From a virus: 64,000 bases of DNA. Every line of letters starts with the position of its first letter. Position 1 is the first letter of the stretch. Positions 3,802 to 63,869 of this stretch are shown here, piece by piece. A program made the position numbers and the translations under genes. The notes beneath the pieces were generated by a model. The model worked only from the letters and a program-made list of their open reading frames with translations. It had not been told where the DNA came from and did not search any database. Where the stretch lies: the IMG/VR virus record IMGVR_UViG_3300028274_000006, positions 10,773 through 74,772 of that record. One strand, given 5' to 3'.

Positions 3802-4655
3802 AACAATACCCTTATGTTTTTCCCTACTTTGGCTATGATGAGACATCAGCGGGCAATGTATTGATTCATAAGTTTTGTCACTTAATTAACGAGCTTGGTG
3901 GTAAAGCCTACATGGCTACCGACATTACTCATCCAGATCTAAACACTCCTAAAATAAACAACATACAAGGCGTAGACGATAAGTGCATTGTTGTCTCTCC
4001 TGAGAACATCAATCATTTAACCTATGGCGGTGATTACATAGTTAAGTACATCCAGGCTGACTATGAGAAGATTGGTAGGGGCAAAGTTGATTTGGCTGGA
4101 GTAGATGATGTGTGGTGCTTTGCAAAGACATTGTTTCCTAAGCATTGGGGTGGAGAAGTTAAGGTTTGTCATTTTAATACCGTTGATCTTAGTTTGTTTA
4201 ATGAAGACGAGAAGTTTGAGAGAAAGGGCAACATTTGTTACGTCGGTAGAATGGGCGGTAAGGTTGATACATCAATTCTAAAAGACATGAAAGACCTAAC
4301 TGCAATTACCCATGATTTCCCAAAAGACAGAAAAGACCTTATTAAACTCATGCGTAGTAGTGAGTGGTGTTATATATTCTCCAATACTTCAATAGGCAGT
4401 GAAGCCATTATGTGTGGCTGCCCAGTGGTTATGCATGAGAATTTCTCAATGGCTTATGCCTTTGACGAGTATGGTGAAGACGGGAAGTTGTACGGTATGG
4501 CTATAGGTAACTCACTAGAGCAAATGGAGTGGGCTAAGAAAACAGTTAAGAAGTTTCAGGAGAAGGTTTACTGGCATGAAAGCCAAAAGGAGAAAAGAGT
4601 ACTGGCCTTCATGGAAGATACTCAAAAAGGATTACATGAAAAACTACTCGGTTGA
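3798..4655 (+). CDS. Putative GT-B fold glycosyltransferase-like protein
   Basis: YVGR and EAIMCGCPVV GT-B-like C-terminal motif; inside the GT cluster. Confidence 0.55.
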   Translation: MKQYPYVFPYFGYDETSAGNVLIHKFCHLINELGGKAYMATDITHPDLNTPKINNIQGVDDKCIVVSPENINHLTYGGDYIVKYIQADYEKIGRGKVDLAGVDDVWCFAKTLFPKHWGGEVKVCHFNTVDLSLFNEDEKFERKGNICYVGRMGGKVDTSILKDMKDLTAITHDFPKDRKDLIKLMRSSEWCYIFSNTSIGSEAIMCGCPVVMHENFSMAYAFDEYGEDGKLYGMAIGNSLEQMEWAKKTVKKFQEKVYWHESQKEKRVLAFMEDTQKGLHEKLLG

Positions 4656-11840: not shown

Positions 11841-12590
11841 ATGGCATCAGTTGACGAACAAATTAGAGCACTAGATAGTCAGGCCGCTGATGAGATCAAT
11901 AAATATATTGATGAACTCAAGGGCGAGGCTCAAGGTGACTTTGATTTTATTACTAAGTTTTTAAAGAGGCAATTTGAGACTGCTTTAGGAACTGACAATC
12001 AAGCCAGAGCTGAGTTCTTTTCTAAGGTTGCCAACCAGTTGGAAAAACGCATTGGGAGAATTCCCTTTGACTTTGATCTTAAAACTGGCAGAGAGAAGGT
12101 AGATATTGCCAACTTCTTGAGAAGACAAGACATAGAAGACACCGACCTACGGGCCAGAGAAGCGGAGTTTGAGCAACAACAAGAATTTGCAACCGGCATA
12201 GAGACTGAACAACGCAAAGAAGAGTTTGGGGCTAGAGGACTTTTAGACTCAGGGCTTCAGGTTAAGCGCAGACAACAGCAAGAAGAGGCAAGGAAACTAA
12301 GCACTGATCCTATTCGTAGGGCGTTTGATCTTGAGAGAACTCGTAGAACAGAGCAATCAAAAGAAGCTCAACTACAAAGCGGGCGCAGACTAGAAGATAT
12401 CCAAACAGGAGCTAGAAGAGGTGCAGAAGATGTACAGTTTGGATTTGATAAGGGTAGCGAGGCAGCTCAGTTAGACTTTGAAAAGAGACTGTCTGCTATT
12501 GAAAGAACTGGAGCTTCTGAGAGAAGAAACGTACTATCTCTACTAACACAAGAAGAATTATTAAAGAAACAACTAGGACAATTCGGATAA
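11841..12590 (+). CDS. Putative internal/ejection virion protein
   Basis: Helical, with ARGLLDSG motif; paralog of 53373. Confidence 0.55.
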   Translation: MASVDEQIRALDSQAADEINKYIDELKGEAQGDFDFITKFLKRQFETALGTDNQARAEFFSKVANQLEKRIGRIPFDFDLKTGREKVDIANFLRRQDIEDTDLRAREAEFEQQQEFATGIETEQRKEEFGARGLLDSGLQVKRRQQQEEARKLSTDPIRRAFDLERTRRTEQSKEAQLQSGRRLEDIQTGARRGAEDVQFGFDKGSEAAQLDFEKRLSAIERTGASERRNVLSLLTQEELLKKQLGQFG

Positions 12591-13582
12591 TGACAGACCT
12601 ACCAAGTTTTACCAGAGATCTAGAACAATTCAGGCAAGAGTCCGATATATCTGGAGTGGGACAGCGACCAATTAATGCCGCTACCCCAATTTTAGATCCT
12701 TCCGTAAAAGAAACTCCAGAGATTGAACAACAGGAAATTAGCGCACCATCATTTGCTGATGATATAGCTAGTTTTAACAAGGAAACTATTGATGTAGGGA
12801 GCCAGGCAAAAGAAGTTGCTTCTAGAGTTAATACGCTGAATGTTGAATTAATTAACAAACAGGAAGAAGCTGCTAAAAAAGAACAAGAAAAGGAGCCTTA
12901 CGATCCTACTGGCAAGACTCCAGAACAGATTATGGCTGAAACAGGTCAGCAGTCTTTACTAGATGACTTAGGAAAAAAGGGCATTGATGTTAATCAGTTA
13001 GCTCAATCTAGACAAATGGAGCGCAAGGGGATTGACGCGGTACAGCTAGAGAGAGTTAACCAATTAGTTAGTCAGGGACTTTCAGAAAAAGAGGCTTTTT
13101 ACAACGTAGCCATAGAAGGCAACGTAGAAGAGGATATCCCTGGATTAAAACTCTTTGAGGGCGACTTTGATATTAGCCAACAGTTTAACAACTTTAACCC
13201 ATCGCTCTACAAAGGCATTACTGCCGACAGTAGACACAAGGGCTTAGATGTTGCTGTTCCTAAAAACACTGAACTAAAGGCCCCTGTATCAGGAGAAGTT
13301 AGATTGGGATTTGACCAGAATGGCTACGGTAGAAACGTTGTTATAATAGATGAGTTGGGAAACAGCCATAGAATTTCACACATGGACTCGTTTAGCCCAC
13401 AAGCTGTCACAGCAGCTAATGAAGGCAAAAAGATAGGAGCAGGACAATCAATAGGATTAAGTGGAGGCAAAGGAAGATTTGCAGGAAACTCCACTGGCTA
13501 TCACACTGATATATCGGTTAGAAACAGCAGGGGTCAATTTGTGAACCCATTATCATTATCAGTTTATAGTCAATTATTTTAA
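12590..13582 (+). CDS. Virion protein with C-terminal M23 peptidase domain
   Basis: HKGLD, APVSG, GYG, SHM and STGYHTD M23 motifs. Confidence 0.8.
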   Translation: MTDLPSFTRDLEQFRQESDISGVGQRPINAATPILDPSVKETPEIEQQEISAPSFADDIASFNKETIDVGSQAKEVASRVNTLNVELINKQEEAAKKEQEKEPYDPTGKTPEQIMAETGQQSLLDDLGKKGIDVNQLAQSRQMERKGIDAVQLERVNQLVSQGLSEKEAFYNVAIEGNVEEDIPGLKLFEGDFDISQQFNNFNPSLYKGITADSRHKGLDVAVPKNTELKAPVSGEVRLGFDQNGYGRNVVIIDELGNSHRISHMDSFSPQAVTAANEGKKIGAGQSIGLSGGKGRFAGNSTGYHTDISVRNSRGQFVNPLSLSVYSQLF

Positions 13583-13591
13583 GGAGAATAT

Positions 13592-14728
13592 ATGGTATTA
13601 GATACACCACCGCAGGCACAAGCAGGAGATGAATTAGCAAGACAACTACAGTCAAGTTTACAAGCTCAGCTTTCTTTGGCAGAGGACTTTCAAAGCAGAG
13701 CACAAGAGAGGTTTCCAGAACTTCAAAAAAGAACTAATGAAGTTCAAGCATTTGCAAGAGGAACGGATCCAGGACAAGGAGCTTCTAGTGTAGAAGCACT
13801 ACGCAACTTAGGAGAAAGAGTATCTGGGGAAGCCCCCAGTGCCTTATTAACAGCTTCTTCTGGATTGGGTAGAGCACTACAAACCGGATTGGATGAAACA
13901 GTAGCTGCTGAAAGAAGAGGGTTTCAAGAAACTCAAAGCGACAACGTAATAAACATAATAAGCAAAATGATTTCCCTCAAAGAGAGACAGGATGAAGCGG
14001 TAAGACAATCTGTTAAGGATGGATTCAAGGTTACTGCAGATGGAACTATAGAGCCATTGAGCGAGCAAGAGTTTGCTCAAAGAGAGTTAGTTGGGGAAGA
14101 TGCAGTTGCAGAAGTTATTAAGCAAGGTGGAAGTGACTTGGTAAGAAAAGGCGGTACTAAAGACGAGAGGTATGCGATTGCAGAATCAATTCTCCGGTCT
14201 GGAGGTATTCAACAATACAAACAACAAATTCCATTGATTGAACTCATAACAAATTCAGAAGAAAAAGATATTAAAACTCAAACAGACTTACTTCAACTGA
14301 TTGATCAGGGAGTTGCTTTGTTTTCAGGTACAGATGTGAAAACAGGAACTGGTCCATTTGCGGCATTAATCCCAGGCTTTTTAGCTGGTGAGAAAACAAG
14401 ATCTCTAAGGAGAGTAGTTGAAAACGTTAAGGCTCAATATGCAAAAATTATATCTGGAGCAACGGTTTCAGATAGAGAAATGAGCAGACTAGAGAAGTTC
14501 TTGCCAACATCTGGAAAGACAGAGACTGAAAACCTAGAGGATTTAAAACAACTATCTAAAGATCTTATGATTAACCAATTAATTTTTGAAAAGGGTAAAC
14601 GAGAAGGATTGACTGCTAACCAGGCGTACAGCGAGTACGGTCAAGAGATTTTTGATCAATTTGAAGGAACTGGGGCGGGATCATCAAATCAAGATAATGA
14701 CAAAATATTAGAAGAAATGGGGTTCTAA
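13592..14728 (+). CDS. Putative ejection (DNA transfer) protein
   Basis: Helical, with ISGATVSDRE...FLP motif; paralog of 54993. Confidence 0.55.
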   Translation: MVLDTPPQAQAGDELARQLQSSLQAQLSLAEDFQSRAQERFPELQKRTNEVQAFARGTDPGQGASSVEALRNLGERVSGEAPSALLTASSGLGRALQTGLDETVAAERRGFQETQSDNVINIISKMISLKERQDEAVRQSVKDGFKVTADGTIEPLSEQEFAQRELVGEDAVAEVIKQGGSDLVRKGGTKDERYAIAESILRSGGIQQYKQQIPLIELITNSEEKDIKTQTDLLQLIDQGVALFSGTDVKTGTGPFAALIPGFLAGEKTRSLRRVVENVKAQYAKIISGATVSDREMSRLEKFLPTSGKTETENLEDLKQLSKDLMINQLIFEKGKREGLTANQAYSEYGQEIFDQFEGTGAGSSNQDNDKILEEMGF

Positions 14729-14730
14729 AT

Positions 14731-16155
14731 ATGCCAACAGATAAAAGATTATTATTACAACAAGCTAAAGAGAGAAACCCCAACCTTACAAGAGAAGAGG
14801 CTTCCTTTATTTTAAAACAAGCAGACTTTAAATCAGAGCCAACTGGATTTCAGAAGGTAGCTAAGAAAGTTTCTAAGGCTGCACCAACGGCAGGAGCTAT
14901 TCTAGGAGGAATTGCTGGATCAATACTCGGAGCACCAAGTGGACCAGGAGCCATCGTAACCGGTGCTGCTGGATCAGCTGTTGGAACTGCTGCTGGATTA
15001 GGAGTTGGTGAAACTCTAGAAGATGCTTTTAAAATTCAAGATGAAACAGCAAGTGAAAGAGCTGTTGAACTTGTAAAAGAACCAGCTATAGCCGGATTAT
15101 TTGATTTACTTACAGCAGGTACTTTAAGGATAGCTGGTAAGACACTAGGACCAGTAGGACGCGCTTTAAAGGGAGCTGCTAAAGGAGCTGGTAGGGTGTT
15201 TGTTCCTAAAAATGCAAGCACTAAGGCTTTTAGTTCAATATTCAAAACAAGTAGTCGCGTTGCGTCTGAGCTGAAACCAGATGAGGTGGCTAGTGAAATG
15301 GTCAAACATGGATTCACTGGAGATCTAGATGATCTTGCAAAGATTGCAGACGACGTAAGTGGAGCTGAAGGACAAATTAGCAGAATAACTAGAAATGCAG
15401 TTGGTAAGATAGGGAAGAACATTGATATTGGAGATGCATTGACTGCCACGGGTAAAGCTGCTGACGACGCTGTTAATCTAGACGCCAAAACACTGAAAAA
15501 CGTTCAGGTTGGTATAAACAACATCTTGAGCAAAAACATTGGTGGCACAAAAAGCGTTACTGGGATTAATCCACTAGACGCTTTAGATTCCCAAAGAACT
15601 TTGGAGAGGATAGGATATGGTCTTCTAAACAAGGCTTCTAGAAGTGCTGACGGACTCTCTGCTGAAGTGTTAGAGCAACAAGCTAAAATCTATCTAAGCA
15701 CTGCTGATGAGGTAGCAAATGCCATTGATAAGGCAACCAAAGGGGCCATAGTTGATAGTTTTAAAACATCTCAAATAATAGATTCTCTAAACGCTATCTC
15801 TCCAAGATTAGCAAATCAATTCAAGGCTGCTAAAACTATCCCGGAGATCAGATCAATAGCAAAGCCATTTGTGAGAATGTCTAAACTAATTGAAGCTACT
15901 AAGGCTTACTCTAGCTCAGCTTTCATAGAAGGATTAAAAGGAAGAGGAATTGGAGACGTAGCGGTTGGTGCAATTACTAGACCAGAAGCAGCTACATCGT
16001 TTGCGGTAGCCGGAAAAGAATTGGCTGAGAGCATTCCTGGAAGAGCTGCCAAAGGTGCAGTTGAATTAACTGGTAGAGCTGCAGAAGCAGTTTTGTCACC
16101 GAGCACAGCTAGGATGTTAGTTCAATTGGGGTTAATACCAAGTAGAGAAGAATAG
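14731..16155 (+). CDS. Putative ejection protein with Gly/Ala-rich hydrophobic segment
   Basis: Glycine-zipper-like stretch; paralog of 56177. Confidence 0.55.
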   Translation: MPTDKRLLLQQAKERNPNLTREEASFILKQADFKSEPTGFQKVAKKVSKAAPTAGAILGGIAGSILGAPSGPGAIVTGAAGSAVGTAAGLGVGETLEDAFKIQDETASERAVELVKEPAIAGLFDLLTAGTLRIAGKTLGPVGRALKGAAKGAGRVFVPKNASTKAFSSIFKTSSRVASELKPDEVASEMVKHGFTGDLDDLAKIADDVSGAEGQISRITRNAVGKIGKNIDIGDALTATGKAADDAVNLDAKTLKNVQVGINNILSKNIGGTKSVTGINPLDALDSQRTLERIGYGLLNKASRSADGLSAEVLEQQAKIYLSTADEVANAIDKATKGAIVDSFKTSQIIDSLNAISPRLANQFKAAKTIPEIRSIAKPFVRMSKLIEATKAYSSSAFIEGLKGRGIGDVAVGAITRPEAATSFAVAGKELAESIPGRAAKGAVELTGRAAEAVLSPSTARMLVQLGLIPSREE

Positions 16156-16224
16156 TTATCTACCACCAAACATGGCGCCAGATAAAAATATTAAAAATAA
16201 AACTAAAACTATAATACCGATCAT
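16156..16224 (-). CDS. 22-aa single-TM peptide MIGIIVLVLFLIFLSGAMFGGR (candidate superinfection exclusion)
   Basis: Same length and frame at 57534-57602; TGtTATAAT 7 nt upstream on the - strand. Confidence 0.75.
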   Translation of the reverse strand: MIGIIVLVLFLIFLSGAMFGGR

Positions 16225-16239
16225 AAAGGACATTATAAC

Positions 16240-16620
16240 ATGGCAACACAAACAGCGACCGAATTAACAATACAAAGACTGAAAAACGAGTCTTCAGACA
16301 AGTCAGTTTCACCTGTAATTCCCAGAGAAGGAATGATGGGGAGAGCGTCTGCTGGTACTTGGCATAATGTGTTAGTAGACACAGATGGTAAGTTACAAAC
16401 TGCTGCCGTTTCCTCAAGTAAGGGATTACAATTTGATACTGATTCTGGAGTATCCACCACCTTCTATTTAGGCACAGCAGCTACAGGAACAGCTACATCA
16501 GCGGCAAGTTGGGCTATTCAAAAAATAACCACAGCCTCTGGTGTTCAGATGCTATGGGCTGATGGCAATTCAACAGAAGATAATATTTGGGATAACAGAG
16601 AGTCTTTATCATATTCATAA
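16240..16620 (+). CDS. Putative minor virion protein
   Basis: AASWAIQKI...WADG...WDNRESLSY; N-terminus shared with 57617. Confidence 0.6.
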   Translation: MATQTATELTIQRLKNESSDKSVSPVIPREGMMGRASAGTWHNVLVDTDGKLQTAAVSSSKGLQFDTDSGVSTTFYLGTAATGTATSAASWAIQKITTASGVQMLWADGNSTEDNIWDNRESLSYS

Positions 16621-17637
<1,017 letters not shown>

Positions 17638-26415: not shown

Positions 26416-26561
26416 TGAAAACTCAACTAGAAATAGCCATTGAAAACCTAGATGAAGCGTTAGACTCATTTGATAGCGAAGTAGATAAGATTAAGAGCTT
26501 AGTAGCATCTTCTCTAATTTATTTAAGAGAATACAAGCACTATGAAGAAAGGAATGAATAA
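26415..26561 (+). CDS. Small early protein (48 aa)
   Basis: KTQLEIAIE...YLREYK, homologous to 63589. Confidence 0.75.
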   Translation: MKTQLEIAIENLDEALDSFDSEVDKIKSLVASSLIYLREYKHYEERNE

Positions 26562-26695
26562 TGTCTATATCAAGATGCCAATATTGTGACACAACTTACG
26601 ATCAAGATTTTAACGCAGAGCATGAGGAAGAGTGCGAGATGGAAACTCAGGAAGAACACGAAGAAGTTTGTGAAGGATGGTTATTAGATAAATAG
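26561..26695 (+). CDS. Small acidic C2HC-type protein (44 aa)
   Basis: MSISRCQYC...HEEEC, homologous to 63735. Confidence 0.75.
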   Translation: MSISRCQYCDTTYDQDFNAEHEEECEMETQEEHEEVCEGWLLDK

Positions 26696-29659: not shown

Positions 29660-29954
29660 AGGAGCATAATGGGAGAAATGATTAAATGGCTAATAATAGC
29701 TCTACTAACTTCAATAGCTATACTATGGCTTGATGCTATGTTAAGAGGAGGGGTAACTCCCTGGTAAAAGAAAGATAAATAACATTATGAAAGAAGCTAT
29801 TACTAACCAAACGGAGGAGGAGTAGATGATTTTTAACTTTTTAACAGAAACGGCATTTAGTTTACTAATGTTGGTAGGAGTTCTATTATTAATCTATTTT
29901 ATTATATTAACTATTTTGATGATTAAAGATTTGTTTAACTAAAAGGAGGGTGAG

Positions 29955-36059: not shown

Positions 36060-36078
36060 GTTGTAGCAATTTCCAATT

Positions 36079-36100
36079 AGGCTCCTTCGGGAGCCTTTTT
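36079..36100 (+). terminator. Rho-independent terminator
   Basis: UUCG hairpin plus T-run. Confidence 0.9.
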
Positions 36101-36145
36101 GGTTTGTGCTATAATGTGGTTATATAAGAAAAAAGGAGCAGTCTT

Positions 36146-54992: not shown

Positions 54993-56177
54993 ATGGTAAC
55001 ACTAGCACAAACAGGTGATGAATTAGCAAGACAGCAGGGAGTTCCTACCGACAGTAGAGTTAAGCAACAAACTGGAGATGCTTTTGGAGCTATTGAATCA
55101 CAACTACAACAGCAACTATCCTTAGCAGAGGACTTCCAACGCAGAGGACAAGAGAGATTTGGTGAAGTTTCAAGGTTTGCTGCTGGACAAGGAGTGGCTG
55201 GAGTAGAAGCAGTTAGAGACCTTGGACAAAGAGTTTCTGGTGAAGCTCCTAGTGCCTTAATTGGAGCTTCTACAGCACTTGGAAGAGCATTACAAACTGG
55301 AGTCGCAGAAGCCCAAGAAGCCGCATCTAGCGATAATGTTATAAACATTTTATCTCAAATGATTTCTCTTAAAGAAAAACAAGATGAAAGTATTAGACAG
55401 TCTATTGAAGATGGATTTAAGATAGGTCCAGATGGAGTTATTGAAGCACTTACTGAACCTGAATCAGCACAAAGAACATTAGTTGGAGAAGAGGCTGTTG
55501 CTGAAGTTATAAAACAAGGAGGTGGCGATTTAATTAGAAAAGGTGGGAGTAAAGATGAGAGATTTGCTATAGCAGAATCTATTTTAAGATCTGGTGGAAT
55601 CCAACAATATAAGAATCAAATCCCACTAATTGAACTAATAACTTCTTCAGAGGAAAATGATATCAAAACTCAAACAGATTTATTGCAACTAATAGATCAG
55701 GGAGTGGCTTTATTCTCAGGGGCTAAGACTAAAACTGGTACTGGACCGCTAGCAGCACTAATCCCAGGGTTTGCTGCTGGAGAAGAAACAAGATCATTAC
55801 GAAGATCTGCTGAAAACATCAAGGCTCAATATGCAAAGATTATCTCTGGAGCAACAGTATCAGATAAAGAAATGAAGAGACTAGAGAAGTTCTTACCAAC
55901 ATCTAAAAAGACAGAACAAGAGAACCTTGAGGATTTGAAACAACTTTCTAAAGATCTCCAAATTAATCAATTAATCTTTGAAAAGGGCAAAAGAGAAGGA
56001 TTAACAGCCAATCAAGCATATGGTAAATATGGTCAAGAGATATTTGATCAGTTCGGAAATGGTGTTGAAGAGGTAGAGACTGGAAAGATTAAAGTTAAAA
56101 GAAAATCTGATGGTCAAATTGGATTCCTTGATAGTGAAGATGAATTTGATTCAGAGATATACGAAAGGACTCAATAA
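54993..56177 (+). CDS. Putative ejection protein (copy B)
   Basis: Paralog of 13592. Confidence 0.55.
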   Translation: MVTLAQTGDELARQQGVPTDSRVKQQTGDAFGAIESQLQQQLSLAEDFQRRGQERFGEVSRFAAGQGVAGVEAVRDLGQRVSGEAPSALIGASTALGRALQTGVAEAQEAASSDNVINILSQMISLKEKQDESIRQSIEDGFKIGPDGVIEALTEPESAQRTLVGEEAVAEVIKQGGGDLIRKGGSKDERFAIAESILRSGGIQQYKNQIPLIELITSSEENDIKTQTDLLQLIDQGVALFSGAKTKTGTGPLAALIPGFAAGEETRSLRRSAENIKAQYAKIISGATVSDKEMKRLEKFLPTSKKTEQENLEDLKQLSKDLQINQLIFEKGKREGLTANQAYGKYGQEIFDQFGNGVEEVETGKIKVKRKSDGQIGFLDSEDEFDSEIYERTQ

Positions 56178-57532
56178 TGCCATTCACACCAATAAAAGAT
56201 TCATTTGAAAAAGAGTTAACACCAGGACAAAAGGTGGTTAAGGGGGTTTCAAAAGCTGCTCCTACTGCTGGTGCTATATTGGGAGGTATCGCTGGTTCAA
56301 TAGCTGGTATTCCCGCACTTGGATTAGGAGCAATTCCCGCAGGTGCTGCTGGGGCTGCTGCTGGAACTGGGGCTGGATTGGCACTGGGAGAAAGTTTAGA
56401 AAACCTGGCTAAAATTCAGGATGAAACAATATCAGAAAGAGCTGTTGAAGCCGTTAAAGAACCAGCAATAGCTGGATTGTTTGACCTACTTACAGCAGGA
56501 ACTCTTAAAGTGGCTGGTAAAACACTAGGACCAGTTGGCAGAGCACTAAAGGGAGCTACAAAAGGAGTTGGAAGAGTGTTTGTACCGAAGAATGCTAGTA
56601 CTAAAGCATTTGGCTCAATCTTCAAAACAAGTAGTCGTATTGCGTCTGAACTCAAACCAGATGAGGTGGCTACAGAGATGGTTAAACACGGTTTTACTGG
56701 TGACTTAGATGACTTAGCTAAGATAGCTAATGATGTTAGCGGAGCAGATGGAGCCATTAGTAAGATAACCAGAAACGCCGTTGGAAAAGTGGGAAGGTCA
56801 ATAGACATAGGTGATGCACTGACCGCAGCGGGGAAGGCAGCAGATGATGCTGTAAACGTAGATGCAAACACACTAAGAAAGACACAGGTTGGAATTTCAA
56901 ATATTTTAAGCAAGGGTCTTGGAAAAGAAGGTGTAACTGGAATAAATCCACTAGACGCATTAGATGCACAAAGGTCTTTAGAAAAGATTGGTTATAGCCT
57001 TCTAAATAAAGCTGCAAGAAGTGCAGACGGATTATCTGCTGAGGTTTTAGAACAACAAGCAAAAATCTATTTAGGATCTGCTGATGAGGTGGCTGTAGCT
57101 ATTGATAAGGCAACCAAGGGAGCTATTATTGACAGTTTCAAAACCCCACAGGTTTTAGATAGTCTGAATGCAATCTCTCCAAGATTAGCAAAGCAGTTTA
57201 GGGCTGCTCAGAGTATTCCTGAGATTAGGTCAATCGCAAAGCCATTTGTGAGAATGTCTAAACTAATTGATGCAACTAAAGCATATTCTAGTTCAGCTTT
57301 TCTAGAAGGAATAAGAGGAAGAGGAGTGGGAGAATTAGTTACTGGAGCATTGACAAGACCTGAGGCTGCCACATCATTTGCGGTGGCTGGTAAGGAATTA
57401 GTGGAAAGTCCTATTGGTAGGGGGGTAGCTGGAACAGCTAGAATAGCTGGTCAAGCTGCTGAAAAAGTAATGAGTCCAAGTACGGCAAGAATGCTAGTTC
57501 AATTAGGATTAATACCTAGTAGGGAAGAATAG
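56177..57532 (+). CDS. Putative ejection protein (copy B)
   Basis: Paralog of 14731. Confidence 0.55.
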   Translation: MPFTPIKDSFEKELTPGQKVVKGVSKAAPTAGAILGGIAGSIAGIPALGLGAIPAGAAGAAAGTGAGLALGESLENLAKIQDETISERAVEAVKEPAIAGLFDLLTAGTLKVAGKTLGPVGRALKGATKGVGRVFVPKNASTKAFGSIFKTSSRIASELKPDEVATEMVKHGFTGDLDDLAKIANDVSGADGAISKITRNAVGKVGRSIDIGDALTAAGKAADDAVNVDANTLRKTQVGISNILSKGLGKEGVTGINPLDALDAQRSLEKIGYSLLNKAARSADGLSAEVLEQQAKIYLGSADEVAVAIDKATKGAIIDSFKTPQVLDSLNAISPRLAKQFRAAQSIPEIRSIAKPFVRMSKLIDATKAYSSSAFLEGIRGRGVGELVTGALTRPEAATSFAVAGKELVESPIGRGVAGTARIAGQAAEKVMSPSTARMLVQLGLIPSREE

Positions 57533-57533
57533 T

Positions 57534-57602
57534 TTATCTACCGCCAAAAATGGCACCTGAAATAAACAGGAGAACGAAAATTAAAATGATAAAACCGATC
57601 AT
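57534..57602 (-). CDS. 22-aa single-TM peptide MIGFIILIFVLLFISGAIFGGR
   Basis: Homolog of 16156-16224 with the same promoter arrangement. Confidence 0.75.
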   Translation of the reverse strand: MIGFIILIFVLLFISGAIFGGR

Positions 57603-57616
57603 AAGGACATTATAAC

Positions 57617-59020
57617 ATGGCAAAGACATCAACAGAGCTAACTATACAAAAGCTAGAGAATGATATAGCTGATAAGTCAGTTTCTCCTTATGTTATTAGG
57701 CGTGGTTTAATTGGCAAGGCTAGTGATGGTACTTACTACAATATCGTTGCTACTACCGACGGAGAGTTAAAGACTGTTGCTGGTGGACACATTTCTACCG
57801 CCAACTCTACAACCACAGTATTAGATCCCGCTGGAGTAAATGCCTTCACAGGAACCGCAGAGGATATTACTGATGTCTCAGCGATTGTTATTCATGTTAA
57901 GGCTTCTCATGCTTCAGCCACAGATGGTTTAAGCGTTCAGTGGTCACCCGATGGAACTAATTGGGATGGCACAGATGACTTCACTGTTCCTGCTGCTAGT
58001 GGTAAGACATACTCGTTTCAACCAGCAGCTCAATATATCAGGGTGGTTTACACCAACGGAGGAACACTACAGACCTATTTCAGACTCCAAACAATATTTA
58101 AGCATACCAACATCAAACCAAGCTCACACCGAATAGCTGATGCAATCATTGACGACGATGACGCAGAGCTAGTAACTTCAGTCCTTAAAGCTAAGGCTAA
58201 TGGTGGTGGGTTTGTAAACATTGAAGCTACAGCCTCAAACAACTTGAGGGTGACTGATGCTGAGTCGGGGCTATCTATCGCTAAGGGAGATGTTACTGAC
58301 CACTCATTCATTCATAAGTTCGGAGCAGCCCCAGACTTTGATGTAGGGGATGGCTTTGTAACTGTATGGGATGGTGCTGAGGATGATGTGGCGTGGATGT
58401 TAATGAACTATGTTTACTCAAGTACAGCAGCCATAGATTCTATAAGCTCAACAGATGATGGAGATACACAAGATGTTGAGATTCAAGGATTAGATGCTAA
58501 CTACGATTTAGTTATTCAAACAGTAACTCTTACTGGTAATACTAGGAAGGCTTTAGACACAGACCTTATTAGAATATTTAGAATTAAAAATGTGGACTCA
58601 TCTAATTTTGCAGGACACGTTATTGTTTATGAAAATGACACCACTGGGGATGACCCAGGAGTACCAGATGATTCAAACTTAATTAGGGCGGTAGTACAAC
58701 CAGACAACAACCAGACTGAGATGGCGGTATTTACTATACCTGACGGATATACTGGTTACATGAGGTCTTGGTATGCAAGTACAGCGGGGGCTAAGAGAGA
58801 CAGCCAACACACCATTAAAATTTTAGCTAGACCATTTGGTCAGGTTTTCCAACTTAAACATAAGGCTAATATTTCTGTTACAGGAAACTCATATATTCAA
58901 CATAGGTATGAAGAACCAGAGAAGTTTTCAGCCAAGACAGACATTGAGATGCAGATGGATACCGATACGGATATAGCAGGTGTAGCTGGTGGATTTGATA
59001 TAGTATTAGTAGCGGATTAA
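57617..59020 (+). CDS. Putative virion structural protein
   Basis: N-terminus shared with 16240; long unrelated beta-rich remainder. Confidence 0.6.
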   Translation: MAKTSTELTIQKLENDIADKSVSPYVIRRGLIGKASDGTYYNIVATTDGELKTVAGGHISTANSTTTVLDPAGVNAFTGTAEDITDVSAIVIHVKASHASATDGLSVQWSPDGTNWDGTDDFTVPAASGKTYSFQPAAQYIRVVYTNGGTLQTYFRLQTIFKHTNIKPSSHRIADAIIDDDDAELVTSVLKAKANGGGFVNIEATASNNLRVTDAESGLSIAKGDVTDHSFIHKFGAAPDFDVGDGFVTVWDGAEDDVAWMLMNYVYSSTAAIDSISSTDDGDTQDVEIQGLDANYDLVIQTVTLTGNTRKALDTDLIRIFRIKNVDSSNFAGHVIVYENDTTGDDPGVPDDSNLIRAVVQPDNNQTEMAVFTIPDGYTGYMRSWYASTAGAKRDSQHTIKILARPFGQVFQLKHKANISVTGNSYIQHRYEEPEKFSAKTDIEMQMDTDTDIAGVAGGFDIVLVAD

Positions 59021-63595: not shown

Positions 63596-63735
63596 AAACA
63601 CAGCTTGAAATTGCAATAGAAATATTAGACGAGGCACTAAAGAGTTCACACGATGAAACTCTGAGGGATAAAATAGCCGCCTCACTAATGTACTTGAGAG
63701 AATATAAATACTTTGTAGAACGAGGTGAAGATTAA
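63589..63735 (+). CDS. Small early protein
   Basis: Homolog of 26415. Confidence 0.75.
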   Translation: MLKTQLEIAIEILDEALKSSHDETLRDKIAASLMYLREYKYFVERGED

Positions 63736-63869
63736 TGTCTATATCAAGATGCCCATACTGCGGTACACAATATGACCAAGACTTTAATGTAGAACATGAG
63801 GAAGAATGCGAGATGGAAACTCAGGAAGAACACGAAGAAGTATGTGAAGGATGGTTATTAGATAAATAG
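63735..63869 (+). CDS. Small acidic C2HC-type protein
   Basis: Homolog of 26561. Confidence 0.75.
   Translation: MSISRCPYCGTQYDQDFNVEHEEECEMETQEEHEEVCEGWLLDK

Follow-up and report, generated by a model that had tools for sequence, protein, structure and literature searches.

A 22-codon minus-strand frame fills the gap between two plus-strand genes

The subject of this analysis is a 22-codon open reading frame (ORF) for a hydrophobic peptide on the minus strand of a 64,000-nucleotide (nt) stretch of DNA from an uncultured marine phage (hereafter the window, the whole stretch analysed; bases 10773–74772 of the 74.8-kb, 74772-base IMG/VR record IMGVR_UViG_3300028274_000006). Within the window, one phage genome occurs as two diverged copies in tandem, copy A (44–34206) and copy B (34328–64000), and the frame is present in each, at 16224→16156 and at 57602→57534, equal in length as the first-pass annotation of this DNA had reported. 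In both copies, the frame converges on the 3′ end of a gene for a putative internal-virion or ejection protein, and an extended −10 promoter-like element precedes it at the translation start of the following plus-strand gene (Table 1). In copy A, the frame fills the 84-nt gap between the two plus-strand genes: the three bases that follow the TAG stop codon of the upstream gene are, when read on the minus strand, the TAA stop codon of the peptide.

The copy A and copy B peptides have mean Kyte-Doolittle hydropathies of 2.2 and 2.3, respectively, and the copy A peptide comprises one transmembrane (TM) helix with a C-terminal GxxxG motif (G16–G20). The gene is unannotated and is a member of no known family; searches of Pfam and PHROGs returned no meaningful match (at Pfam E <= 10, chance TM matches only).

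Table 1. Coordinates of the micro-peptide frames, the promoter-like elements and the flanking genes. Positions refer to the window, except those of L003 and L008, which refer to their own contigs.
Feature	Position	Strand	Description
Micro-peptide ORF, copy A	16156..16224	−	ATG 16224–16222, TAA 16158–16156; 22 codons; MIGIIVLVLFLIFLSGAMFGGR
Micro-peptide ORF, copy B	57534..57602	−	ATG 57602–57600, TAA 57536–57534; 22 codons; MIGFIILIFVLLFISGAIFGGR
Extended −10 element, copy A	16232..16240	−	TGTTATAAT; 7 nt (GTCCTTT) before peptide ATG
Extended −10 element, copy B	57609..57617	−	TGTTATAAT; 6 nt (GTCCTT) before peptide ATG; A of ATG at canonical +1
Micro-peptide, L003	3791–3862 (3862→3791)	−	metagenome contig; 23 amino acids (aa); MITFIVVVIVIFLLLALSGAIFG
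Micro-peptide, L008	1412–1480 (1480→1412)	−	IMG/VR contig; 22 aa; MLKAFVLIYMVGFWLFSSLFAD
Convergent upstream gene, copy A	14731..16155	+	474 aa, all-helical; N-terminal glycine-zipper-like hydrophobic stretch; putative internal-virion/ejection protein; stop TAG abuts peptide stop
Convergent upstream gene, copy B	56177..57532	+	451 aa, 79% identical to copy A protein
Downstream gene, copy A	16240..16620	+	126 aa; ribosome-binding site (RBS) and start region contain the minus-strand promoter-like element
Downstream fibre/spike-like gene, copy B	57617..59020	+	467 aa

The substitution pattern argues for translation of the minus strand

Comparison of the two copies reveals a pattern beyond that expected by chance. 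In particular, 16 of the 69 nt of the frame differ, distributed 7/0/9 over codon positions 1/2/3; five codons are changed synonymously only, and all eight replacements swap one of V, I, L, M and F for another of these residues, as the first-pass annotation had noted in describing the substitutions as hydrophobic-to-hydrophobic with several synonymous changes. One-base indels flank the frame at both ends (between the convergent stops, and between the −10 element and the ATG), and none falls within it. In a neutral simulation, we introduced 16 substitutions at random, in line with the T-rich base composition of the locus. Start, stop and length survived together in 9.8% of trials (P = 0.098), and the frame was kept with every replacement also within V/I/L/M/F at P = 7e-5. 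In composition-matched shuffles, a frame of 20–25 aa with hydropathy >= 1.6 appeared in 0.6–2.5% of trials per locus.

The same data bear on the possibility that the junction holds no gene, just an A-rich, unstructured leader of the fibre gene whose T-rich opposite strand is open by chance, with a "promoter" that is the complement of the RBS-to-ATG spacer. Composition lends this some footing and tells against a peptide gene: the peptide strand is 40–49% T, so that any open frame on it is hydrophobic, and 31–43% of matched shuffles are open for at least 20 codons. Motifs of the promoter type also arise without function, as is shown by a TGATATAAT pair within coding sequence at 2410 and 36706, and many of 120 IMG/VR matches to the pattern TGTTANAATNTCCTN(1-2)ATG are complements of ordinary RBS–ATG regions. 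None of these 120 chance occurrences is followed by a 20–25 aa frame with hydropathy >= 1.6. A chance frame leaves unexplained the joint retention of start, stop, length and hydrophobicity, the rarity of such frames in shuffles, the confinement of indels to the outside of the frame and two features of the relatives described below, in which the frames do not shrink along with the gap but reach into the coding sequence upstream, and the C-terminal motif of L003 is kept through synonymous changes. We consider the absence of any gene very improbable. A 22-aa frame behind the same motif at L015/L027 was rejected as a candidate; it is antisense to a plus-strand gene with a strong RBS.

The plus strand of the same segment is also open, from ATG 16172 in copy A and ATG 57550 in copy B (MAPDKNIKNK... 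/ MAPEINRRTK...), a frame that the first-pass annotation had not noticed. It shares its wobble positions with the minus-strand frame, and synonymous third-position changes alone therefore cannot tell the strands apart. A small plus-strand ORF as the true gene would be consistent with its being open in both copies, with 13 of 22 residues identical and with third-position changes that are synonymous in both frames. Its changes, however, fall 0/7/9 over its own codon positions and include the radical exchanges K/I, I/R and I/K; its length is 31, 21, 12 and 11 aa across copies A and B and the relatives L003 and L008, against 22, 22, 23 and 22 aa for the minus-strand frame; it has no Shine–Dalgarno sequence within 16 nt; and its start codon is missing in L003 (ATC instead, opposite strand). 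Coding by the plus strand is accordingly a most implausible account of the locus, and translation of the minus-strand frame is, as judged from the sequence comparisons, probable.

All convincing genes of the window lie on the plus strand, and the peptide frame is the sole hydrophobic minus-strand small ORF outside plus-strand genes with a coding-like substitution pattern, in agreement with the earlier statement that no other minus-strand gene could be supported. As a negative control, we used a conserved hydrophobic antisense ORF pair, 26570–26623 / 63744–63797, that lies opposite a real plus-strand gene: its changes at codon positions 1/2/3 number 9/4/1, opposite to what coding would give, and it was rejected as a gene, being the shadow of a real 44-aa plus-strand gene. 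The latter gene, at 26561–26695 / 63735–63869, encodes an acidic, cysteine-containing protein of 44 aa (MSISRCQYCDTTYDQDF...). The sequencing runs listed for this DNA include no RNA run, and four DNA runs yielded only identical low-coverage pieces and unrelated AT-rich snippets, with no variants.

An extended −10 element is positioned for a probable leaderless mRNA

The first-pass annotation had placed a TGnTATAAT sequence 6–7 nt before the peptide ATG, overlapping the RBS and start region of the next plus-strand gene, and had taken it to imply a leaderless mRNA. The element is found in both copies, and its position is correct for a transcript starting at the A of AUG. In copy A, it overlaps the start codon of the plus-strand gene (ATG 16240) and the spacer that follows the RBS (AAGGA, 16226–16230). 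The distance from the −10 element to the peptide ATG is 7, 6, 6 and 6 nt in copies A and B, L003 and L008, respectively, and the 6-nt spacing in three of the four loci places the A of the ATG at the canonical +1 position. The 16 nt upstream of the peptide ATG (TGTTATAATGTCCTT(T) or TTGTTAGAATATCCTC) are the complement of the plus-strand gene's RBS and contain no purine-rich Shine–Dalgarno sequence. The most economical reading, which we regard as fairly likely, is that the mRNA starts at the predicted site downstream of the extended −10 element and is leaderless. The lambda cI mRNA made from PRM is a leaderless phage mRNA in which the −10 element is placed for a start at the A of AUG and no Shine–Dalgarno sequence is present; it encodes a 237-aa repressor, whereas the window locus would encode a 22-aa membrane peptide from a predicted start site.

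TGnTATAAT occurs 11 times in the window, against 4.0 occurrences expected. In the clearest plus-strand cases, at 1820 and 36107, TGCTATAAT immediately follows a terminator hairpin, with an RBS and ATG ~30 nt further on. No −35 element can be recognised in these cases either, and the minus-strand element matches these plus-strand extended −10 promoters in quality. No ORF of the window is long enough for an RNA polymerase-sized gene, and, together with the extended −10 promoters, this makes the phage appear reliant on the host polymerase. The terminator–promoter junction after the capsid gene (1780–1828 / 36067–36115, plus strand) consists of a GC-rich hairpin, aggctccttcgggagcct, and a T-run, followed by TGCTATAAT, and is kept in both copies.

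The frame is kept in relatives at the same junction

The upstream protein has 12 homologues in a large protein collection, among them P0002, P0003, P0005 and P0007–P0009 at 68–38% identity. IMG/VR profile scans gave L003–L008 as the only relatives, and an exact 18-mer scan gave the contig of L008 only; IMG/VR single-protein and two-copy scans, and two further contig scans, found no relatives, and the search for relatives of the L008 upstream protein returned that protein only. The comparison of loci comprised window copies A and B, L003, L008 and the more distant L004 and L006/L007, with the contigs of P0002, P0003, P0005 and P0007–P0009 left out. In four loci (copies A and B, L003 and L008), hydrophobic minus-strand frames of 22, 22, 23 and 22 codons lie at the same place and on the same strand, each behind TGTTATAAT or TGTTAGAAT. 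Disruption of the frame in relatives had been named in the first-pass annotation as the finding that would speak against a gene; the frame is intact in both L003 and L008.

In L003, the upstream protein is 48% identical and the fibre N-terminal domain 56% identical to those of the window. TGTTAGAAT sits 6 nt before the peptide ATG; that distance is kept, whereas the distance from the −10 element to the plus-strand gene's ATG is shifted by 2 nt. The window and L003 peptides have N-terminal MI...I.V and C-terminal LSGA(M/I)FG in common, kept through six synonymous codon changes. The last eight L003 codons overlap the upstream gene, whereas the same C-terminal stretch is intergenic in the window; since the motif is kept under both arrangements, the conserved reading is that of the minus strand.

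In L008, the fibre N-terminal domain is 46% identical to that of the window and the block AAGGACATTATAACATGGC is shared exactly, whereas the upstream protein is unrelated to that of the window (hhalign match of 18 glycine-rich residues only). The intergenic gaps are shorter, 64 nt in L003 and 68 nt in L008, and the length of the frame is kept by an overlap with the upstream gene of 24 and 15 nt, respectively.

The more distant relatives carry longer minus-strand ORFs at the junction. In L004 (42% identical), there are three small minus-strand membrane ORFs, one of them behind TGCTATAAT with a normal leader and RBS; in L006/L007 (33% identical), there is a hydrophobic minus-strand ORF of 44–47 aa behind TGCTAAAAT. 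The L004 ORFs (3810–4345, minus strand; 36–50, 45 and 45 aa) have the arrangement of a convergent mini-operon and contain a 24-nt motif, TTGCAAGTTGGTTAAAATGGAGAG, twice; an Atlas search with an L004 ORF gave a top score of 0.79. In L006/L007 (3321–5214), two small plus-strand holin-like membrane ORFs and an amidase endolysin come straight after the homologous gene, and the minus-strand ORF is wedged between them.

The junction lies within a block of virion genes

The module to which the junction belongs contains a major head protein (851–1771), virion proteins, a fibre-like protein and an M23-peptidase protein (12590–13582) of a kind present in internal virion proteins; the last is followed by two orphan proteins (13592–14728 and 14731–16155) and then by the short fibre N-domain protein. 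The portal is SU10/P22-like, with a best identity of 27.5% to cultured phages. The 474-aa product of 14731–16155 has its glycine-zipper-like hydrophobic stretch at residues 50–94, and an AlphaFold model (mean predicted local distance difference test score, pLDDT, 59.8) has a confident helical core at approximately residues 156–397. A structure search gave no PDB match at E <= 0.001 and one match in BFVD, to an uncharacterised podovirus protein; PDB and Pfam profile searches gave glycine-zipper matches only, which were insignificant; and the protein has no homologue among cultured phages.

The N-terminal ~55 residues of the 126-aa protein downstream of the copy A frame recur in the 467-aa copy B protein and in the fibre/spike-like proteins of L003 and L008. 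The fibre is modular (16240–17637 versus 57617–59020): copy A has the 126-aa protein, consisting of the N-terminal domain only, followed by a 335-aa collagen-like repeat protein, whereas copy B has a single 467-aa protein with the same N-terminal domain and a different C-terminal part (phrog_8198).

The module content of the two genome copies is unequal, and CheckV rates the record 100% complete. The two-copy record may have arisen in assembly, as a chimeric concatemer of two strains that occur together, or may represent a real dimer. No integrase, serine recombinase or resolvase was found in the record, and, since it contains neither an integrase nor a serine recombinase, the phage looks lytic and apparently non-temperate.

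The arrangement resembles that of known exclusion loci

The first-pass annotation had pointed to sieA of phage P22, which lies beside the ejection genes and blocks DNA entry. P22 SieA is a protein of the inner membrane with 162–164 aa and three TM segments (four in types B and C); it blocks DNA injection, and escape mutations map to the ejection proteins gp16 and gp20 (PMC10883804). In the P22 record, sieA (13336–13830, minus strand) has its own promoter and lies 22 nt from the end of gene 16 (13313) and ahead of the start of gene 9 (16204). The analogy holds for position and orientation: in each phage, the gene is on the opposite strand, convergent with the last ejection gene or its putative counterpart and before the tailspike or fibre gene. 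It does not extend to a sequence relationship. Specifically, the window peptide has 22 aa and one hydrophobic helix, the SieA cytoplasmic motif FxRYPxEAxxFNK is absent from all four peptides, which also have no Pfam or PHROG match, and SieA is expressed from a prophage, whereas the window phage has no integrase. On size, topology and motif, the window peptide is not a member of the SieA family.

The closest known arrangement to the window locus is the corresponding junction of Salmonella phage BTP1 (LT714109.2; L132). There, we find an unannotated hydrophobic minus-strand ORF of 23 codons (14082→14011, MERDLLNFVFLIFGLVVGKLLFA), with GGAGGG 5 nt and TATAAT ~28 nt upstream, that shares the final 12 nt of the injection gene; by the published mapping, its position is the 3′ end of STnc6030 (PMC7067206). 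The ORF resembles the window peptide in size, strand, position and GxxxG motif, and its 12-nt overlap with the injection gene compares with frames that abut or overlap the upstream gene by 0–24 nt in the window, L003 and L008. It differs in that BTP1 is a temperate enterobacterial P22-like phage and in that the micro-ORF has a Shine–Dalgarno sequence and a leader rather than being leaderless. The BTP1 and window peptides share only FLIF at residues 10–13 and GxxxG and do not have the length needed for statistics, and no sequence relationship links the flanking proteins.

Expression of STnc6030 excludes BTP1, abolishing its infection, and the function has been assigned to an antisense RNA (Owen et al. 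2020, PMC7067206). The same could be supposed for the window locus: the functional product would be an antisense RNA that pairs with the ejection-gene mRNA at its 3′ end or disturbs transcription into the fibre gene, and the frame would be secondary. The placement of the promoter-like element on the translation start of the fibre gene and the antisense course of the transcript into the upstream gene are consistent with this, as is the published STnc6030 model itself (PMC7067206). However, an RNA-only function does not predict the lack of position-2 changes, the kept hydrophobicity, ATG and stop, or length changes confined to multiples of three, nor the kept length of 22–23 codons in L008 with its unalignable peptide. 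A search for an RNA element gave no Rfam match and a fold z of −1.1 to −1.5, which is not significant. For STnc6030 itself, the study excluded just ORFs of more than 60 aa, and escape is by non-synonymous mutations that alter the end of the injection protein (PMC7067206). We therefore judge an RNA-only function improbable at the window locus, and a peptide product remains the favoured reading.

A further comparison is offered by HK97 gp15, a moron product that prevents DNA entry of related phages in a manner dependent on tail or ejection proteins of the incoming phage (Cumby et al. 2012, as summarised in PMC3594210). Like the window peptide, gp15 is a small inner-membrane protein coded within a block of virion genes; unlike it, gp15 is larger, related to YebO, expressed from the prophage and provided with its own promoter and terminator. 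The window locus is not a moron in the Juhala/Hendrix sense, having a promoter-like element and, as far as was found, no terminator, in a record with no integrase or resolvase.

The first-pass annotation had also offered a type I toxin-like peptide. Ibs/Sib type I toxins are hydrophobic peptides of 18–19 aa under antisense RNA control (PMC8309996, PMC2887945), and IbsA inhibits the F1Fo ATP synthase (bioRxiv 10.1101/2025.05.26.656083). By analogy, the window peptide could be real but directed at the host, as a toxin-like or regulatory product that acts early in infection, either by depolarising the membrane or by binding to a membrane protein of the host, with the late plus-strand transcript as an antisense brake. 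Its very short length (< 60 aa), nearly complete hydrophobicity and GxxxG motif resemble those of the 19-aa Ibs toxins, the convergent layout without a terminator forces an opposite-strand transcript to cover the whole gene, and the phage looks lytic. The specific toxin proposal found no support: the peptide matches no known toxin family (Ibs, Ldr, TisB, Hok, Fst and others), and no plus-strand promoter–terminator unit that could specify a dedicated antitoxin small RNA is visible in the gap, although the late plus-strand mRNA would still be antisense. Moreover, the mRNA, if leaderless, has none of the structured 5′ untranslated region that silences type I toxins, and the fixed linkage to the end of an ejection-type gene in several lineages points to phage entry. 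A host-directed role is thus unlikely, if less so than an RNA-only function, and we favour a peptide that acts on phage entry as the better guess.

A proposed model for exclusion by a minimal membrane peptide

In the model that we propose, a host sigma-70-type RNA polymerase would recognise TGTTA(T/G)AAT within the RBS-to-start spacer of the tail-fibre gene and, to judge from the spacing, would start transcription 6–7 nt downstream, at or beside the A of the AUG, to give a leaderless mRNA. Translation would yield a single-helix membrane peptide of 22–23 residues with a small-xxx-small or GxxxG face close to the C-terminus. No terminator separates the frame from the convergent gene, whose 3′ end it reaches or enters; the peptide transcript would therefore run antisense into the upstream gene, the late plus-strand transcript would cover the peptide gene, and the peptide and late plus-strand transcripts would be mutually antisense. 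This may confine synthesis of the peptide to the time before late transcription sweeps through. In the cytoplasmic membrane, the peptide might then hinder the ejection proteins of later-arriving related phages in forming the channel for DNA entry, a step suggested by synteny with two experimentally supported exclusion loci, P22 sieA and BTP1 STnc6030. One further observation, from a single case, fits exclusion: in L008, the type of peptide changes together with the type of upstream gene, while the promoter and fibre block stay constant. Superinfection exclusion is our best guess at the job of the peptide, though a tentative one, and the entire chain of steps, exclusion included, deserves the same caution.

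A broader version of the model is rather doubtful, albeit conceivable. In that version, injection-blocking micro-peptides of 20–25 residues, coded backwards at the junction of ejection and fibre genes, would form a widespread unannotated class in short-tailed phages that ranges from enterobacterial P22-like prophages, in which the effect is credited to antisense RNA, to this lytic-looking marine lineage. Its most reduced form would be the one here, with an extended −10 element, a leaderless AUG and a single GxxxG helix packed against the glycine-zipper membrane segment that the incoming ejection protein carries.

Several points weigh against the model. The peptide's GA(I/M)FGG and the neighbouring glycine zipper's GAILGG are not alike above shuffles (P = 0.09–0.27). 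The assignment of the 474-aa product as the last ejection protein is reasonable but unproven, its basis being position and composition only. No −35 element is visible upstream of the peptide gene, and no terminator was found after its frame. The rules of promoter recognition and leaderless translation that we assumed may not be those of the host, and the logic of a prophage-expressed moron may not apply to a phage in whose record no integrase, serine recombinase or resolvase was found. The evidence covers three independent lineages, and the L008 peptide is not alignable with the other three.

A variant in which the peptide acts as a decoy or mimic of the neighbouring protein was rejected: local alignments of peptide and neighbour do not score above shuffles (P = 0.05–0.83), and the GA(I/M)FGG likeness is a lead only.

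Implications and an additional small frame

The kind of locus described here, with a small membrane function coded backwards between ejection and tailspike genes, is already known. New are its occurrence in a distant, apparently non-temperate marine lineage, the minimal and predicted leaderless form of the gene and the placement of the promoter-like element within the neighbour's translation start. Gene callers do not see genes as short as 22 codons, and the window gene, in addition, lies on the "wrong" strand of a one-direction phage. If the frame is translated, an independent, distant lineage has a very small membrane peptide encoded in fixed linkage with the end of a putative DNA-ejection gene, and the locus would exemplify a compact leaderless gene whose promoter lies within the translation start of an opposite-strand gene. 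Conservation of such a peptide in unrelated marine phages strengthens the case for a test of peptide versus RNA at the BTP1 junction. If exclusion is indeed the function, exclusion-type functions occur in phages without lysogeny genes.

Elsewhere in the window, a hydrophobic plus-strand ORF of 38 aa (29826–29942, MIFNFLTETAFSLLMLVGVLLLIYFIILTILMIKDLFN) lies in a gap between called genes and may encode an unannotated small membrane protein.

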